From contig JBDHAC010000007.1 of NCBI GenBank assembly GCA_039588275.1, positions 1 to 64,000 of the forward strand: DNA of 64,000 nucleotides. Direction: 5' to 3'. Below the pieces are notes generated by a model that saw nothing but the letters and a program-made list of their open reading frames with translations, was not told where the DNA came from and did no database searches. Positions within the stretch are counted from its first letter, which is position 1. Each line of letters begins with the position of its first letter. This document shows, piece after piece, positions 46,345 to 54,069 of the stretch. The translations under genes were made by a program, and so were the position numbers. The DNA is from Gemmatimonadota bacterium. Lineage in GTDB: Bacteria > Gemmatimonadota > Gemmatimonadetes > Palauibacterales > Palauibacteraceae.

Positions 46345-46926
46345 CTAGGAGATGAACTGCGGAGAGAGCACGAGCTGCATGAACTCCTCGCGCGTGCGTG
46401 GATCACTGCGGAACAGCCCGCGGACCGCGCTCGTGATGGTCTTGCTGTTCTGCTTCTGGACGCCGCGCATCATCATGCACAGGTGGTAGGCTTCGACGAC
46501 GACGCCCACACCCTGTGGCTGGAGCACATCCTCGAGCGCCTGCGCGATCTCCTCCGTGAGGCGTTCCTGCACCTGCAGCCGGCGCGCGAACACTTCCACG
46601 ACCCGCGGCAGCTTGCTGAGCCCGACGATCTTCCCATCCGGGATATATGCGACGTGCGCCTTTCCGAAGAAGGGAAGCATGTGGTGCTCGCACAGCGAGT
46701 ACAGCTCGATGTCCTTGACGATCACCATGCTGTCGTGCGCCTCGTCGTACACGGCGTCGCCGATCGCATCCTCCACCGACAGCCCGTAGCCGCGCGTGAG
46801 AAAGCCGAGCGAGCGGGAGACTCGCCCCGGCGTTTCGCGCAACCCTGCCCGGTTCGGGTCCTCGCCCAGGGCTTCGAGCTGCGCGCGCACGAGCTCCTCG
46901 AAAGGGACGTCCCGTTCTTCACTCAC
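46345..46926 (-). CDS. folE: GTP cyclohydrolase I
   Basis: [44 protein letters not shown]. Confidence 0.96.
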
Positions 46927-46995: not shown

Positions 46996-47028
46996 AAAAA
47001 AAAGGGGCGACCCTCTCGGGTCACCCCT
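46996..47028 (-). terminator. Intrinsic (Rho-independent) terminator
   Basis: Minus strand AGGGGTGACCC-GAGA-GGGTCGCCCCT followed by a T-tract. Confidence 0.88.
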
Positions 47029-47168
47029 ATGATTGAGACAGATGCGAGGGGTTTTTTGAAGCCCTTTTCCTAATAATCCCTAAGGAATTCGCCCCTCCTC
47101 CCCGTCGTACGCCGTCCCACTCGGGGCCTGACGCCGGCCGGAAGATCGGGAGCGTTATGGCGTCTGTT
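46996..47168 (-). ncRNA. Putative structured small RNA or folE leader (~170 nt)
   Basis: Bounded by a promoter-like element and a strong terminator; several predicted hairpins and a closing stem; no ORF; family not recognised. Confidence 0.5.
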
Positions 47169-47174
47169 GGTTCA

Positions 47175-47203
47175 AAAATACGCCTCACATCCGCTGCTCT
47201 GAA
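47175..47203 (-). promoter_or_regulatory. Putative sigma70 promoter TTCAGA-17-TATTTT
   Basis: -35 at 47203-47198, -10 at 47180-47175, exact 17-nt spacer. Confidence 0.5.
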
Positions 47204-47300
47204 CCTTACGCAGGGGGGCTGCCGCCGTCAATCCTCGCGCCATCCGGACCCGTCCGCGGACCACGCACATCGACCCCGGAGGTCGAACCCGGTGGCCGAC

Positions 47301-48068
47301 TTAGTGACCGCCGGCCGGAACCAGCATCAGACCGAGGATCATCACCGCGACGCCCAGCAGGAACGCGAGGGTATTGCGCCGGCGACCGCTCGCCTGGCCC
47401 TCGGGGAGGAGATCGGCGGCCCCCACGTACAGGAACGTCCCGCCCGACGCCGCCAGGAAGATCCCCAGGAGCATCGTGCTCGCGTCACGCAACAGCGCGT
47501 AGCTCACGACGACGGCGAGCGGCGTGATCAGAGCGACCCAGGTCGCGTAACGCGCGGCCTCCCGCCGCTCCAGGCCGCCGTGGTACAGCACGCTCATGGT
47601 GGCGATCCCCACCGGCAGCTTGTGCGATACGACGAGCGACAGGATCACCGCCCCTGTGAGGAAGCTCGCCGAAAAGCCCGCCCCCACCGCGAGCCCGTCC
47701 AGAAGCGAGTGGAGCGCGAGTCCGAGGATCGCGGCCCAGCCGACTTGGTCCGGGTGGTCGTGGTGGGCCTCGTCCTCCCCTTCCTCGGCGCGGGCGTGCG
47801 GGTGTGGGAGGAAATGGTTCTCGGCGATGTACAACAGGATGAACGCGCCCAGACCCCATGCCATCGACGCACTCGATCCGATCATTTCGCCGGCACGCGT
47901 CAGGAGGTGGAGCAACGAGCCCGCTACCAGCAGCCCGCTGGCAAACGTGATCAGCTCGGGGGTGTGCCGACGGGCCCATGCCTCGTGACCCCACATCAGC
48001 CACACGCCGACCAGGCCGGCGACGCCCGCGATCGCGGCGAAAAGGACTACGGCGGGCCAGGTGGGCAT
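47301..48068 (-). CDS. ZIP family metal transporter
   Basis: His-rich loop HPHA..HHDH, LHSLLDGLAVG, HKLPVG, GTFLYVGAADLLPE. Confidence 0.92.
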   Translation of the reverse strand: MPTWPAVVLFAAIAGVAGLVGVWLMWGHEAWARRHTPELITFASGLLVAGSLLHLLTRAGEMIGSSASMAWGLGAFILLYIAENHFLPHPHARAEEGEDEAHHDHPDQVGWAAILGLALHSLLDGLAVGAGFSASFLTGAVILSLVVSHKLPVGIATMSVLYHGGLERREAARYATWVALITPLAVVVSYALLRDASTMLLGIFLAASGGTFLYVGAADLLPEGQASGRRRNTLAFLLGVAVMILGLMLVPAGGH

Positions 48069-48130
48069 CGGGCTCCTCGTCTGCTCCAGGCGGGGGGAAG
48101 CGCCGCGTCGGGCGAGTGCCAGCGCGACTT

Positions 48131-48178
48131 GATTGCACGTAATCGCCTACAAACCCTACATTTCGCGCGATGTTAGGG
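48131..48178 (+). promoter_or_regulatory. Divergent control region with putative promoter TTGCAC-18-TACATT and two imperfect palindromes
   Basis: GATTGCACGTAATC (48131-48144); CCCTACAT..ATGTTAGGG (48154-48178); ATG at 48170 falls at the expected transcription start. Confidence 0.45.
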
Positions 48179-48523
48179 CAATATCCTTCCCTTTGGCCGG
48201 TGCTGTTGCGGAGGCCGGGCGTGGCGCTTCTGGCGCTCCTCTCGGTGGGCGTACCCGTCAGTCTCCCCCTCGTGGACGCGGGTGAGCGCGTCGATGGGGC
48301 GTTTGTCGAGTCCAGCCACGACCCGGCGACGTGTCTTCGGGTGCACGACCACGCGGCCTGCTCGCAGTTGCTCAAGTCGTTCGCGGGGCTGTGGCCCGCG
48401 TGGCTCACCCCGCTCCGCCCTGCTCGGGCTAGAGGACCACTGTCTACTTCCGGGAAGGCTCCGCCACTCCGACTCTGGCCCGTCTCCCACGCACCTCGCG
48501 CCCCTCCGGAGATCGCTCTCTGA
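48170..48523 (+). CDS. DUF2946-like upstream ORF with His/Cys motif and C-terminal RAPP motif
   Basis: Signal/TM segment, HDPATCLRVHDHAAC, Pro/Arg-rich linker, RAPP five codons before the stop; first gene of a metal uptake operon. Confidence 0.72.
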   Translation: MLGQYPSLWPVLLRRPGVALLALLSVGVPVSLPLVDAGERVDGAFVESSHDPATCLRVHDHAACSQLLKSFAGLWPAWLTPLRPARARGPLSTSGKAPPLRLWPVSHAPRAPPEIAL

Positions 48524-48637
48524 TTCGAAGGGTCCTATGACGGACCTGCGCATGGAGGAGCCTTCGCTTGATCCGTGCGTGACGCGCGCCCGTTGAAGCG
48601 CGTCTGACAGGAGCCAGACATCCTCGGAGGACCACAC

Positions 48638-50026
48638 ATGAAAGCCGATTATGCCAGGGCTGTGCGAGGCTCGCGCCGGGCCATCCTGGGTGTCGTCCTC
48701 GGCACCCTGGTGCCGGGCGTCCCGCTGGCCGCACAGGAGACCCGCGCCGATTCACTCGAGGCGCGTGTACGTCGCCTCGAAACGCTGGTCGATAGCCTGC
48801 TCGTCGAGTTGCGGCGCCAGCGAGCGGCGGAGGCGGGGCAAGCCGAGGCGGGGCAGGCGGAGGCGGCTCGACCGGAGGCGGATGAGCTCGCCGCCCTGCG
48901 AGCGGCGGCAGCAGCCGCGGCGGCGGAGGCGGCGCCCGCGGCCGCTATGGACACGGCAGGCGAAGCGGGTAGCCGCACGCGGAACCTGAACGTCCTCAAC
49001 CCGGAGATCAGCGTCTCCGGCGACGTGGTCGGCGGCTTCCTGTCGCCATCCGAGGAGGACGACCGTGGGACCGCGTTGCCGCGCGAGTTCGAGTTCTCGT
49101 TCCAGGCCGCGCTGGACCCCTTCACGCGGACCAAGATCTTCCTCAGCAGAGAGGAGGAGCTGGAGATCGCCGGGCTCGAAGCCGTCATCGAGGGGGGCGG
49201 CCTCGGCGACGGCGAAGGAGGAGAGGGTGGAGGAGGACACGGCTCCGGGCTCGATCTGGAGGAGGGATACCTGTACTGGGTGGGTCTTCCGGGCGCGATC
49301 GGACTGAAGGCCGGTCGGTTTCGTCAGGAGATGGGGCTGTACAACCGCTGGCATACCCACGCGCTTCTCGAGGTCGAGCGGCCATTGCCGATCGGCGCCT
49401 TTCTCGGCGATGACGGCCTGATCCAGACAGGCGCGTCCCTCACGCTCCCCAGCTTCCAGGTCGGGCCATCCACCCAGACCGTCACGTTCGAGACGGCGCT
49501 GGCCGACAACAAGCTGTTCGAAGGCGGCACGGACTTCTCGTACTCGGGGCGGGCTCAAAGCTTCGTTGACGTCTCGCCGAGCATGTATCTGCAGGTGGGA
49601 GCGAACGGAGTATACGGCCGAAACGACGACCTCGACCTCGATGCCACGTTGTTCGGGCTGGACGTGGCGTTTCGATGGGCGCCGCCGTCGCAGGCACGCT
49701 ACCGTGAGCTGAGGCTGAAGGGCGAGTGGTACTGGGCGGATCGCAACATCGGTCCCGAGAGCTTTTCGGGCAACGGGGGGTACGCCCAGGCCAGCTATCG
49801 TTGGGATCAGCGCTGGATCACCGGCTTCCGGGCCGATTGGCTGGACCACTTCGGAGACGACCCGACGGCCATTCAGCTGGTCCCGTCCGTTACCTGGTGG
49901 CAAAGCGAGTGGGTGCGACTGCGCCTCCAGTACCACTATTTGAAGCGCGCCGGCCTCGACGCCGACCATACGCTCCTGTTCCAGACCGTGTGGGCCGTCG
50001 GGCCGCACAAGCACGAGACCTACTAA
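48638..50026 (+). CDS. Outer-membrane beta-barrel, putative metal uptake porin/receptor
   Basis: Signal peptide, coiled coil, NPEISVSGD, REFEFSFQAALDPF, NRWHTH, alternating beta strands, C-terminal GPHKHETY. Confidence 0.8.
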   Translation: MKADYARAVRGSRRAILGVVLGTLVPGVPLAAQETRADSLEARVRRLETLVDSLLVELRRQRAAEAGQAEAGQAEAARPEADELAALRAAAAAAAAEAAPAAAMDTAGEAGSRTRNLNVLNPEISVSGDVVGGFLSPSEEDDRGTALPREFEFSFQAALDPFTRTKIFLSREEELEIAGLEAVIEGGGLGDGEGGEGGGGHGSGLDLEEGYLYWVGLPGAIGLKAGRFRQEMGLYNRWHTHALLEVERPLPIGAFLGDDGLIQTGASLTLPSFQVGPSTQTVTFETALADNKLFEGGTDFSYSGRAQSFVDVSPSMYLQVGANGVYGRNDDLDLDATLFGLDVAFRWAPPSQARYRELRLKGEWYWADRNIGPESFSGNGGYAQASYRWDQRWITGFRADWLDHFGDDPTAIQLVPSVTWWQSEWVRLRLQYHYLKRAGLDADHTLLFQTVWAVGPHKHETY

Positions 50027-50068
50027 GGCAGGTCGCTGACAGACCTGCCACCAGGAGAGACGCGGAGC

Positions 50069-51169
50069 ATGAGAGACACGATGACGAGACGGTTCACCGC
50101 TACGCGTTGGGCCGCCCTCGCAGTCCTCCTGACCTCGATCGAGCCCACTCCGCTCGGCGCCCAAGACAGACTCAACGTGGTCGCCACGCTCCCGACGTAC
50201 GCGGCGATCGCGCGCGAGATCGCGCGAGACCGGGCCGACGTGCGGGCCATAGCCCGAGGTGACGAGGATGCTCACTTCGTGAACCCGCGTCCGTCATTCG
50301 CGCGTCTGCTGCAATCCGCCGACCTGTTCATCTCGACGGGTCTGGACCTCGAGCTGTGGGTGCCGGGCCTGCTCGACCGCGCCAACAATCCGGACGTGTC
50401 CGAGGGAGGCCCCGGGCACGTCGTCGTCTACTCGGGGATCGAGCTGCTCGACATCCCCGCCTCCGTCTCACGATCGGGGGGCGACGTGCACGTGTTCGGC
50501 AACCCGCACATCCATACGGACCCGATCAACGGGATCCTCATCGGCCGGAATATCCTCGCGGGTCTGAAGCGGGTCGACCCGGACGGCTCCGCGACGTACG
50601 AGGCGAACGCGCGCGAATTCGAGGAGCGCGTCCTTCGCCGGCTGTTCGGCGATGAGCTGGTCGACATGCTGGGTGCCGGTGCCCTGTTCGGTCTAGCTCG
50701 CGCAGGCCAGTTTTGGAAGTTCGCGGAGGGCCAGGAGTTCGAGGGTCGACCTCTCGCGGAATACGTTGGCGGGTGGCTGGCGGAAGCCGAGCCCTTCCGC
50801 GGCGAGCGGATGGTGTGCTATCACAAGAACTGGGCATACTTCAGCGCGCGATTCCAGATCGAGTGCGCCATGTACGTAGAGCCCAAGCCGGGCATCCCGG
50901 CATCGCCGGGGCACGTGCGGGACGTGATCGCCTTCATGGAGGCCAACTCGATTCCGGTGCTGTTCGCCGCCAATTACTTCAGCCAGCGTCAGGTCGAGCT
51001 CGTGGCCGATCGAAGTGGCGCGCTGCCGCTGCGGATCCCGGAGCACGTGGACGGAGAGGAAGACGTGGATGATTACTTCGATCTGTTCGACGCGTGGATC
51101 CCCTGTCTGGCGGTGGCCTTCCAGCAGGGAGAGGGTGTGGCTCACCGCTGCCCGCGTCACCACCCATAG
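50069..51169 (+). CDS. Metal ABC transporter substrate-binding protein (ZnuA/cluster A-I)
   Basis: VVATLP, EDAHF, GLDLELW, GDVH..GNPHIH, YHKNWAYF, EPKPGIP. Confidence 0.9.
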   Translation: MRDTMTRRFTATRWAALAVLLTSIEPTPLGAQDRLNVVATLPTYAAIAREIARDRADVRAIARGDEDAHFVNPRPSFARLLQSADLFISTGLDLELWVPGLLDRANNPDVSEGGPGHVVVYSGIELLDIPASVSRSGGDVHVFGNPHIHTDPINGILIGRNILAGLKRVDPDGSATYEANAREFEERVLRRLFGDELVDMLGAGALFGLARAGQFWKFAEGQEFEGRPLAEYVGGWLAEAEPFRGERMVCYHKNWAYFSARFQIECAMYVEPKPGIPASPGHVRDVIAFMEANSIPVLFAANYFSQRQVELVADRSGALPLRIPEHVDGEEDVDDYFDLFDAWIPCLAVAFQQGEGVAHRCPRHHP

Positions 51170-51234
51170 CATGCCTGACGCTCTCCCTGCGGCCAGCGGC
51201 GCACTGCGCGTGACTGACGCGGCCTCCTGACGTC

Positions 51235-52065
51235 ATGCTCGAGTTCATGCTCGTGCCGCTCGTGGCGGCGCTCGTACTGGTCGGTATCCACGCGTACCTG
51301 GGCGTACACGTCATCGCGCGCGGCGTGATCTTCGTGGATCTGGCGCTGGCGCAGATGGCCGCTCTCGGGTACACGGGCGCGACGCTGGCCGGGATCGAGC
51401 CCGGATCCACGGGCGGGTACGTGATCGGCGTCGCCGCGACGCTCCTCGGAGCCTTGATCCTGAGCTTCACGCGCCTCGAGCACGAGTTCATCACCCAGGA
51501 GGCGCTCATCGGCGTCATGTACGTGACGGCGTCGGCCGCGACCATACTGCTCGCCGCGCAAGCGCCGCGCGGATCGGAGCACGTGGAAGAGCTGCTCACG
51601 GGCACGCTTCTGTGGGTCACGTGGTCCGACGTGCTCCGGATCGGCGCGATCTACCTCGTCCTGGGTCTGATCTACTGGGCGCTGCGGCGACGGTTCTTGA
51701 CGATTTCGCTACGGCCCGCGGAGGCGCTAAGCCACGGGTGGAAGCTCAGGTGGTGGGACTTCGTGTTCTACGGGCTGTTCGGCGCCGTGGTGACCGTCTC
51801 GGTCGCCGTCGCGGGCGTTCTGGTGGTGTTCACCTTCCTGGTGATGCCGGCGGTGATCGCATTCCTGTTCACGCGCCGCCCGGGTCCGTTACTCGGCATC
51901 GCGTGGGCGAGCGGGACCGCCGCGACGGTGGCGGGGTTGGCCTTATCGTTCCGCTACGACCTCCCGACCGGGCCCATGGTGGTGTGCGCATTCGCGCTCG
52001 CGCTCGTGCTCGCGTTCGTCGCCCGCGCGGTGACGGGCCGCTCGGGAAGTCCCGGACCCTCGTAG
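51235..52065 (+). CDS. Metal ABC transporter permease (ZnuB/ABC-3)
   Basis: HAYLGVHVIARGVIFVDLALAQ, EALIG, GVLVVFTFLVMPA, DLPTGP. Confidence 0.9.
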   Translation: MLEFMLVPLVAALVLVGIHAYLGVHVIARGVIFVDLALAQMAALGYTGATLAGIEPGSTGGYVIGVAATLLGALILSFTRLEHEFITQEALIGVMYVTASAATILLAAQAPRGSEHVEELLTGTLLWVTWSDVLRIGAIYLVLGLIYWALRRRFLTISLRPAEALSHGWKLRWWDFVFYGLFGAVVTVSVAVAGVLVVFTFLVMPAVIAFLFTRRPGPLLGIAWASGTAATVAGLALSFRYDLPTGPMVVCAFALALVLAFVARAVTGRSGSPGPS

Positions 52066-52119
52066 CCAGATCGCCGCAGGCTATCCGGCGATCGCCTGGT
52101 TACACAGCTATCCCGTGGG

Positions 52120-54069
52120 CTACCATGCGATGCCGTAGTCGTCGCCGTGGTGGCTCGAGCCACCCCAGAACGACCCGTGCTCCCAGTCGAAGAAGATCGC
52201 GTTGATGGGACCCGACGTCCGCTCGCGGAACGTGAGCGAGTAGCCCATCTCGCGGAGCGCCGACCGTACCCAGGGGGGGGTCGCCTCCTGCAGGAGCAAC
52301 CGCCCGGGCTGCGTCTCGTGATCTCCGAAAGAGCCTCGTAGCTGGTAGCTGTTGATGTTCGGGGCCTCCACGGCCTGCTGCACGTTCATCCCCCATTCGA
52401 CCACGTTGAGGAAGAACTGGAGCAGGTTCTGATCCTGCGAGTCGCCCCCCTGCACGGCGAAGGAGAGGAACGGCTTGCCGTCCTTGAGCGCCATGCCGGG
52501 GGTGAGCGTCGCGCGCGGGCGCTTGCCCGGCTCGACCACGTTGTAGGGGTTCTCGGCCGCGTCCAGCACGAAGCTCTGCGCTCGCTGCGAGAGCCCGATC
52601 CCGGTGCCGCCGGCGATCACCGCCGGGATCCAGCCTCCCGATGGCGTGATCGACACGACCCAACCCTCTTCATCGGCGGCCTGGATGGACGTCGTCCCGA
52701 GGTAGAAGTCCTCCTCGAGCTTACGGATGCGGGCCTCGTCGAGCATCGCCATCCCGGCGCCTTGCTCGGTCGTGACCGCGTCGCCCGTCCTACCCCATTG
52801 ATCCAGGTACTGTTTGAACGGATTCTCTTCGCCCTGGAACGGGTACGGATCTCCCGGGGCCGCGTCCGGATCGTTCTTCTCCCAATCGATCCCGTCCAGA
52901 CGCGCCTTCGCGTAGTCCTTCGAGAGGAGCCCGACGATGGGCTCTGCCGGCGGGTAGTAGGGGTCGCCGTAGTAGAAGTCACGATCGGCGAACGCCAGGT
53001 TCATGACTTGGTACAGCGCATGAATGTAGTTGGCGCTGTTGTACCCCATGGCTTCGAGGTCGAGCTGCTCGACCATGTTGAGCGCCTGCAGCATCACGGG
53101 ACCCTGCACCCAGGTCGTGAGCTTGTAGACCTCGATCCCCTTGTAATCGGTGCTGACGGGCTCCTCGAGGTGGACCTGCCAGTTCCCCAGGTCTTCCATC
53201 GTGATCAGGGCAGCGGCCTCGCGCGCGCCGCGAACGAAGTCCTCGCCGATGTCGCCACGGTAAAACGCATCGTAGGCCGCGTAGATCGCTTCCTCACGGG
53301 ATTGTCCGGCCTCGAGCGCCCCGGCCTCGGCGGCGACCAGCCTCTCGAGCGTTCGCTTGAGATCCGGCTGCCGGAAGATCTCGCCCACGCGCGGGGCCGG
53401 ATCTTCCTCGTCGTCGGGGTGCGTCAGGTAAACCTCAATGGACGAGGGCCACTGTCGAATCTCGTCCAACGCACCGCGGATTCGACGCACGGGATCGGCC
53501 TCGATCGGGTAACCTTCCGCCATCTCGATGGCGGGCTGCAGCACGTCGGCGAGGCTCAGGGTGCCCCACTCGGCGAGCATGGTCATCAGCCCGCCGGGCG
53601 TGCCGGGTGTTACCGCCGACAACGGACCATACTGAGGCGGATACCGCTCATGGCCCTCGGACCGGTAGCGCTCCGGCGTCGCGCCGCTGGGGGCCACGCC
53701 AAGCGCGTTCACCCCGATCACCTTGCCGGTGTTCGGGTTGTAGACCAGCGCCTGCGTCTCGCCGCCCCAACTGAGCACGTCCCACATCGTGGCTGTGGCC
53801 GCGAGCATGGCCGCCGCCGCGTCCACAGCGTTCCCACCCTGGTGGAACATGCGAGCCCCCGCCGTAGCCCCCAGGGGCTTGCCGGTTATCGCCACCCAAT
53901 GAGATCCGTGCAGGACAGGCTTTGCCGTTTGCTGCGCGGTCAGTGGCAGTGCGGTTACCGTCGCGAGGGACGCTGCCAGGACGACGGACGCTCCGAGCCG
54001 CCCGGGGCTCCCCGAAGTCGGCCGAGTGTGGATGCGTCGTGAACCGAGGGATCGTGGCGCGCGGGTCAT
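52120..54069 (-). CDS. ggt: Gamma-glutamyltransferase family protein
   Basis: GGNAVDAA, TPG..G, AFADRD.YYGDP, GTTSIQAAD (Thr nucleophile), PGKRPRATLTP, GGDSQDQ. Confidence 0.9.
   Translation of the reverse strand: MTRAPRSLGSRRIHTRPTSGSPGRLGASVVLAASLATVTALPLTAQQTAKPVLHGSHWVAITGKPLGATAGARMFHQGGNAVDAAAAMLAATATMWDVLSWGGETQALVYNPNTGKVIGVNALGVAPSGATPERYRSEGHERYPPQYGPLSAVTPGTPGGLMTMLAEWGTLSLADVLQPAIEMAEGYPIEADPVRRIRGALDEIRQWPSSIEVYLTHPDDEEDPAPRVGEIFRQPDLKRTLERLVAAEAGALEAGQSREEAIYAAYDAFYRGDIGEDFVRGAREAAALITMEDLGNWQVHLEEPVSTDYKGIEVYKLTTWVQGPVMLQALNMVEQLDLEAMGYNSANYIHALYQVMNLAFADRDFYYGDPYYPPAEPIVGLLSKDYAKARLDGIDWEKNDPDAAPGDPYPFQGEENPFKQYLDQWGRTGDAVTTEQGAGMAMLDEARIRKLEEDFYLGTTSIQAADEEGWVVSITPSGGWIPAVIAGGTGIGLSQRAQSFVLDAAENPYNVVEPGKRPRATLTPGMALKDGKPFLSFAVQGGDSQDQNLLQFFLNVVEWGMNVQQAVEAPNINSYQLRGSFGDHETQPGRLLLQEATPPWVRSALREMGYSLTFRERTSGPINAIFFDWEHGSFWGGSSHHGDDYGIAW

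Follow-up and report, generated by a model that had tools for sequence, protein, structure and literature searches.

A conserved RAPP-ending leader peptide, predicted to sense metal, upstream of a porin–ZnuA–ZnuB operon in Gemmatimonadota

The leader reading frame and its genomic setting

The window, by which we mean the whole stretch of 64,000 nucleotides that was analysed, carries on its forward strand a reading frame of 117 amino acids (48170–48523) which, on profile, family and codon evidence, is predicted to encode a metal-sensing arrest peptide. Re-reading of the sequence reproduced the coordinates, length, motif positions and RAPP codons given in the original prediction, and the leader is confirmed as a real feature of this DNA. 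Its His/Cys cluster reads H50-x4-C55-LRV-H59-D60-H61-AA-C64; 45 residues lie between C64 and R110, the first residue of the motif R110-A-P-P113 at 48497–48508, and four residues remain before the stop codon, from which 114 nt, again as first noted, lead to the next ATG at 48638.

Residues 1–37 (48170–48280, forward strand) form a predicted Sec signal or membrane segment that ends in V-D-A37 and is presumably cleaved there. Hydropathy, the sole predictor used, agrees with the export or transmembrane segment proposed earlier, with a maximum at residues 18–32 (KD15 2.39) and a KD15 above 1.6 in 80/83 leaders of the family, and A37 is almost invariant in a 15-row alignment. The putative metal site, delimited by conservation, spans residues 47–64 (E47, H50, C55, H59-D60-H61 and C64; 48308–48361, forward strand) and is followed by a Pro/Arg-rich spacer of 45 residues (48362–48496, forward strand), the length of which is kept while its sequence is free. 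The RAPP arrest motif comes next on the same strand, and its Pro codons, CCUCCG, are complementary to the Shine-Dalgarno (SD) region of the porin gene. In an AlphaFold model of the leader, helices occupy residues 11–42 and 61–72, the tail is unstructured, with no secondary structure past residue 80, and a confident metal site is absent (pLDDT 56–62 over residues 41–60); a fold search with this model gave zero matches.

A predicted promoter (48133–48162, forward strand) consists of a −35 element TTGCAC at 48133–48138, an 18-nt spacer and a −10 element TACATT at 48157–48162, which ends 7 nt before the ATG of the leader; a strict sigma-70 consensus scan returned no promoter site. The hexamer TAnnnT is found 5–9 nt upstream of an in-frame start in 49/83 leaders vs. 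0/82 downstream starts, and genome-wide at that distance in 69/3907 long frames, while TTGAC is often present at the −35 position of leaders with a −10-like hexamer. Since the −10 box lies only 7 nt before the ATG, a leaderless transcript is probable, and the leader, the start of which has no Shine-Dalgarno sequence, is probably translated from such an mRNA. A GATT-N6-AATC palindrome at 48131–48144 overlaps the −35 box, recurs in L006, L049 and L055 and is a possible regulator site common to the divergent gene described below. In the L060–L101 subgroup, the leader is preceded by another promoter type, which combines an extended −10 with GGAAC around −35.

As the original prediction had it, genes for an outer-membrane barrel, a substrate-binding protein and a permease follow the leader, and models and Pfam matches identify them as a porin, a ZnuA-type protein and an ABC-3 permease. 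The porin (48638–50026, forward strand) is modelled as a 16-strand barrel with an N-terminal helical stalk and no plug (AlphaFold pLDDT 82.5). No Pfam family matched it above cut-off; Foldseek with the model gave OprP (2o4v, E 6e-12) as the best match and porins as the next ones, and we rejected a TonB-dependent receptor, with 22 strands and a plug, because of the 16 barrel strands and the porin matches. H239, H241 and H459 of the porin are invariant and its His-rich C-terminus is conserved, making them candidates for metal selectivity; the long stalk is a candidate trimer anchor. The binding protein (50069–51169, forward strand; Pfam ZnuA, E 2.5e-38) belongs to the ZnuA family (cluster A-I), and its His ligands H69, H147 and H252 are conserved in 59, 59 and 58 of 59 homologs, H252 being aligned with a Glu of Mn-binding MntA. 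A three-His ligand set is the zinc type in cluster A-I binding proteins. The ABC-3 permease, ZnuB/AztB-like, is encoded at 51235–52065 (forward strand; Pfam ABC-3, E 1.6e-31). The traits of a zinc-type cluster A-I importer, that is, a three-His binding protein with an ABC-3 permease, are therefore present at scores that stay below the NCBIfam equivalog cut-offs. No gene for a cognate ATPase was found in the window, and none was recognised in the neighbour clusters that recur across 65 porin loci. The porin, ZnuA and ZnuB genes are each single-copy in the genome, and the gene after the permease encodes a gamma-glutamyltranspeptidase in opposite orientation. A planctomycete locus, L105, has two ABC-3 permeases.

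Divergently from the leader, and sharing a promoter region of 101 nt with it, lies a gene for a ZIP (ZupT-like) metal transporter (47301–48068, reverse strand; Pfam Zip, E 6e-27), which scores under the NCBIfam ZupT cut-off and is found in 20/65 porin loci. Beyond it, GTP cyclohydrolase I is encoded at 46345–46926, which may be plain synteny; in another locus (L052:1029-2144) this enzyme is fused to a PTPS/QueD domain. GTP cyclohydrolase I and PTPS/QueD are zinc enzymes.

Conservation of the leader family

A profile seeded with four close proteins was searched against 41 related genomes and gave 14 matches, the query frame included, the 14th of which runs off its contig. All 13 complete matches keep HDH-xx-C, a spacer of 45–46 residues and R[AS]PP, and all sit before the same outer-membrane gene. 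A wider profile matched 69/301 Gemmatimonadota genomes and 454 protein clusters at 50% identity. Among the best 150 of these 454 cluster representatives, which were retrieved by a profile already holding the motif, R[AGS]PP was present in 148 and HxHxxC in 146, and the spacer measured 44–46 residues in 145/148. H59 and C64 were invariant and E47 was kept in at least 90% of 75 sequences.

Because the profile matches had been found with the motif itself, the downstream porin gene was taken as a second anchor. The gene was present in 82/201 genomes, one of which is flagged unpublished. The porin-anchored set comprised 65 loci, with Gemmatimonadota titles except for nine from planctomycetes and other groups, and seven of them were not evaluable (six with less than 300 nt upstream, one with an N gap). 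Upstream of the porin gene, 52 of the 58 evaluable loci had a frame ending in R[AGS]PP and six had no leader; in 44 of the 52, a Cys, which was no selection criterion there, stood 44–46 residues before the Arg. In 40 further porin loci a frame with an R[AGS]PP end was found upstream in 35, one of which repeats an earlier locus and one of which, without the Cys, is doubtful, and it was absent in five. Over the 83 leaders counted after removal of duplicate genomes, Cys and Arg were 44–46 residues apart in 74, and the motif was RAPP in 64, RGPP in 14 and RSPP in five. Relatives with CxxC occur in planctomycetes; a metagenome scan for close relatives gave four loci, and a plasmid search for a porin homolog gave two weak matches.

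The reading frame, its motif, the spacer length and the position before the porin gene are thus conserved. Since the spacer sequence diverges and the motif positions use all synonymous codons, it is the length of the spacer and the protein motif that selection keeps. Loss of RAPP or of the His/Cys motif in homologs would have told against the original prediction, and neither was seen. The family counts likewise agree with its view of the frame as a leader akin to CruR and CutF that combines an export segment, a His/Cys cluster, a spacer of set length and RAPP and stands ahead of a metal-uptake operon. In the 4.1-Mb genome itself, R[AGS]PP ends 98 stop-to-stop frames, and the leader is the sole one with H..H..C or CxxC 43–47 residues away (control motifs gave 0, 1 and 0), which puts the combination beyond chance; genome-wide profile and motif scans found no second family member.

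An origin of the leader as an open frame arising by chance in GC-rich DNA would accord with the start lacking a Shine-Dalgarno sequence and with the lack of any match in Pfam (at E ≤ 1) or NCBIfam. Conservation refutes this explanation, to which we assign practically no weight: the profile is matched by hundreds of clusters, the motif codons vary synonymously and the −10 box is held at a fixed distance. It is also very improbable that the leader serves as an exported small protein for metal binding, or monitors Sec export capacity as ApdP and SecM do, with RAPP slowing or coupling translation and no sensing of metal. The near-universal signal segment and the exported or membrane nature of the downstream products would suit such a function, and passages of PMC10951233 describe RAPP peptides as export monitors. 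A secreted chaperone, however, would need no fixed spacer, whereas here the Cys–Arg distance is held to a few residues and the spacer sequence is free, and a SecDF monitor showed no conserved motif.

Porin loci with no leader, among them L079, L081, L083, L086, L103, L128, L129, L144, L147 and L157, represent natural alleles. Alkaline phosphatase, a zinc enzyme, is encoded directly upstream in L070, L083 and L091, and since leaderless L083 shares this neighbour with leader-bearing L091, gain or loss of the leader in place is possible. At L071:1-7186 the porin-ZnuA-ZnuB operon occurs as a tandem duplicate, the second copy of which has no intact leader and only an ARGPP remnant in one frame. Related leaders in L029, L033, L042–L045 and L048 precede other genes, which resemble TonB-dependent receptors by N-terminal sequence; by the same kind of evidence the gene after the L033 leader is TolC-like.

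Modelled pairing of the leader 3′ end with the porin Shine-Dalgarno sequence

The 114-nt intergenic region (48524–48637, forward strand; the family median is about 105 nt) contains three hairpins predicted by consensus folding to lie inside a long-range helix, and the porin SD, GGAGG, at 48626–48630. In the consensus of three same-genus sequences, this helix pairs the Pro-Pro codons with 48625–48630 and encloses the three hairpins; double changes were found in 2/42 pairs of that consensus. The original prediction had placed the switch in a small TCCT-CGG-AGGA hairpin at the ribosome-binding site. This hairpin (48621–48631) is present, but it is weak (−2.0 kcal/mol) and its 5′ arm is altered in both same-genus relatives, so that we rejected it as the switch; the longer-range pairing with the leader 3′ end fits better.

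To assess this pairing across the family, RNA models were computed for 82/83 leaders (L038 has no downstream sequence), with downstream start codons picked by script, some of which may be wrong. The duplex between the RAPP tail and the SD was stronger for cognate than for non-cognate partners (−18.1 vs. −15.4 kcal/mol over 82 loci), a gap of 2.7 kcal/mol compared with at most 1.2 in control windows, and the cognate duplex ranked in the top 5% at 13/82 loci vs. 1–5 for eight control windows. The 34 further loci gave a similar picture (−17.9 vs. −15.4 kcal/mol). Deletion of everything up to 21 nt past the Arg codon made the SD easier to open by 2.8 kcal/mol, whereas two control windows showed no decrease, and a single ribosome footprint at RAPP lowered the opening energy by 1.8 kcal/mol vs. 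0.05 with the footprint 20 codons upstream. This footprint effect exceeded 1 kcal/mol in 40/82 loci and was reversed in 8/82; in L033, the modelled SD change is of opposite sign (−5.3 kcal/mol), as an efflux switch might give. Occlusion of the SD amounted to 2.8 with the leader's own 3′ end and to 1.5 with foreign ones (own exceeding foreign in 51/82 loci), meaning that about half of the effect is generic. In the further loci, the advantage of own over foreign ends lacked significance (19/34, p 0.08); as kin are not independent, the p-values overstate the case. A bias toward CCT codons was dropped as proof of anti-SD selection: 36/83 vs. 82/819 Pro codons, then 8/34 in the further loci, and clade-biased.

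At the query locus, the SD opening energy fell from 9.0 to 6.6–6.8 kcal/mol with one ribosome at RAPP and to 7.5 with the upstream control, and two queued ribosomes brought it only to 7.1–8.9 kcal/mol. The modelled gain there is 0–2.4 kcal/mol and varies with the footprint, three repeats in the last 20 leader codons competing for the SD; even after truncation of the sequence at 48518, the SD remains paired to the region around the stop codon. Taken together, the models suggest that relief of SD occlusion by a stalled ribosome is a modest family-wide effect which is weaker at the query locus.

A scan found no intrinsic terminator, and Rfam over 47000–52500 gave one irrelevant sub-threshold match and no relevant family. 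The first of these results would suit the same sensor with an output of the CruR type, the mechanism that sections of PMC9426467 set out: a stalled ribosome would hide a Rho loading site, its release would lead to termination before the porin gene, and SD pairing would be incidental or secondary. The base composition is in line with this, for the C/G ratio is highest around RAPP (2.1–2.5) and at four-fold sites the early part of the leader has C 0.38/G 0.42, compared with C 0.45/G 0.18 from RAPP on, and a Rho RNA-binding domain occurs above cut-off twice in the genome (C46:14321-14542 and C32:33445-33663). Nevertheless, the advantage of cognate over non-cognate duplexes calls for more than C-richness, and predictions give the intergenic region a high degree of structure, both of which make a Rho output unlikely as the main one, though SD occlusion and Rho outputs can coexist.

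Candidate metal signal, proposed mechanism and known arrest peptides

By ligand set, the 83 leaders divide into HxHxxC (49), CxxC (20, one with both) and single-Cys (15) types, and all three head the porin operon (43, 17 and 15 leaders, respectively). Measured from RAPP, His61 stands where CxxC leaders have their first Cys, which suggests that the His-rich leader is a variant in a continuum grading into DUF2946. The His-rich ligands that the original prediction had set against CxxC were found, but HDH alone is no evidence for a different metal, given that CxxC and single-Cys leaders precede the same operon. Of Zn, Ni and Co, which it had named as candidate signals, the content of the operon favours Zn over the other two, if only putatively, and no Cu, Ni or Co genes were found among the neighbours examined. 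The leader is likely to be metal-responsive, and we give zinc a slightly better than even chance of being the main signal. The two Fur-family proteins in the genome, which is 86% complete, score best as Fur and PerR rather than Zur, far below the NCBIfam cut-offs.

Unlikely, in our estimate, is a metal-responsive arrest peptide that answers instead to Cu, Co, Ni, Mn or Fe or to the redox state of its two cysteines. ZIP transporters are promiscuous for metals, the closest PDB sequence matches of the binding protein are YfeA and MntA/MntC, and the proven relatives of the leader sense Cu; moreover, PMC9973294, in the passages concerned, ties His-rich CutF-like clusters to Ni/Co genes. A C55–C64 disulfide is possible, as proposed for CutF. 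Against this reading stand the conserved three-His site of the binding protein, the lack of Cu, Ni or Co genes among the neighbours examined and the several homologs that have no C55.

On balance we favour a mechanism in which the leader stalls its own ribosome at metal, most likely zinc, scarcity and is thereby predicted to free the porin ribosome-binding site. Arrest is very probable and control of the operon in cis highly likely. The probably leaderless mRNA would load a ribosome at its 5′ end, and the signal segment would engage SecYEG. As judged from ApdA/ApdP and CruR, arrest would occur at RAP/P with Pro112 in the P site; RAPP alone is insufficient for arrest (PMC12992588). In the arrested state, the active site would be 48 residues away from C64 and 62 from H50, which would put both residues past the tunnel, within the translocon or on its far side. 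In the models, an mRNA free of ribosomes has its RAPP codons and tail base-paired to the SD 114 nt downstream, and a stalled ribosome would cover them and leave the SD free; the C-rich stretch may double as a Rho loading site. Metal binding would then fold the His/Cys segment, pull the chain, end the arrest and shut the operon. A bolder version, which we consider conceivable though doubtful, holds that a leaderless exported nascent peptide binds Zn2+ via H-C-HDH-C at the translocon and ends RAPP arrest, whereupon the Pro-Pro codons re-pair with the SD, and that arrest, not Zur, controls zinc uptake across much of Gemmatimonadota.

So far, copper is the sole metal for which sensing by a nascent chain has been shown (CruR, CutF), and PMC12992588 poses as an open question how metal alters arrest. 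Should a zinc version prove true, the class would become broader and Zur would have a counterpart of another kind. With the spacer as a ruler of constant length, the leaders of HxxC, CxxC and single-Cys type that nature already provides make a ready series for metal specificity and pulling force; the RAPP motif can be carried into translation systems of E. coli or B. subtilis, and alleles with no leader also occur naturally. The arrest codons themselves contain the predicted anti-SD, and the family points to an uncharacterised porin through which zinc probably enters.

The concept of non-copper CutF-like leaders has already been predicted in print. Passages of PMC9973294 propose His-rich CutF-like leaders for Ni/Co, and part of PMC4176598 describes a DUF2946 gene heading a zinc-efflux operon. 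In a published supplement, at least nine rows place RAPP leaders before ‘zinc-regulated’ receptors, eight of those nine with CxxC; these rows appear neither in the text of the paper (‘zinc’ has 0 matches there) nor among the top-30 classes, and their label may denote the porin family. No zinc-sensing arrest leader was found in the literature searched, which lacked most subscription papers. What is new here is the predicted leaderless start and the modelled pairing of RAPP codons and tail with the porin SD, predicted to be relieved by a stalled ribosome.

Several traits of DUF2946 (PF11162) are present in the leader: RAPP about 45 residues past the metal motif, an N-terminal segment by hydropathy, and a position at the head of a metal-homeostasis operon, before a long intergenic region; the genes are of zinc rather than copper type. 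Instead of CxxC, however, it has HxxC (H61-A-A-C64) at the same distance from RAPP, and it gave no match at E ≤ 1 to the family model, the cut-off of which is 23.7 bits; for these two reasons we do not file it under DUF2946. Among 81 of the 83 homologs (L067 and L113 were left out of the Pfam scan), 16 had sub-threshold PF11162 matches, the best at 21.7 bits, and the nearest ESM Atlas cluster is auto-named putative DUF2946 (score 0.97), which we treat as a lead.

The closest parallel is CruR (Bp2923) of Bordetella pertussis, a DUF2946/PF11162 member for which, according to sections of PMC9426467, the 45-residue spacing is needed and an extension by five residues loses most of the regulation; its arrest is cited also in PMC12992588. 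As those sections present it, CruR resembles the query leader in being the first gene of a metal-import operon, in its export signal, in a C-terminal RAPP that follows the metal motif at a distance of 45 residues, and in its long intergenic region, C-rich 3′ end and expected logic, by which metal turns uptake off. The query leader differs from CruR in having HDH-xx-C with an upstream H and C instead of CxxC, in heading a porin-ZnuA-ZnuB operon in Gemmatimonadota instead of a TonB-dependent copper system, in its predicted SD occlusion and leaderless start, and in scoring under the Pfam cut-off.

CutF of Rhodobacter capsulatus, in the passages that PMC9973294 and bioRxiv 10.1101/2025.02.05.636593 offer on it, is, as proposed here for the query leader, a nascent sensor that is exported and, on stalling, releases a downstream Shine-Dalgarno sequence from sequestration. 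Unlike the query leader it has CxxxC and a PPP tail, stalls with Cu present and switches on detoxification, and the query anti-SD, unlike that of CutF, lies in the leader's own last codons. As the query leader precedes uptake genes, a polarity opposite to that of CutF is implied. The sensing side is cytoplasmic for CruR and periplasmic for CutF, in the relevant parts of PMC9426467 and PMC9973294. ApdA, ApdP and SecM monitor protein export and head sec genes, and the passages of PMC10951233 that treat them describe no metal motif; like members of the ApdA/ApdP class, the query leader has R[AG]PP close to its C-terminal end and is by prediction small and exported or membrane-bound. By analogy, then, the leader appears to work like CruR with an output of the CutF/SecM type.
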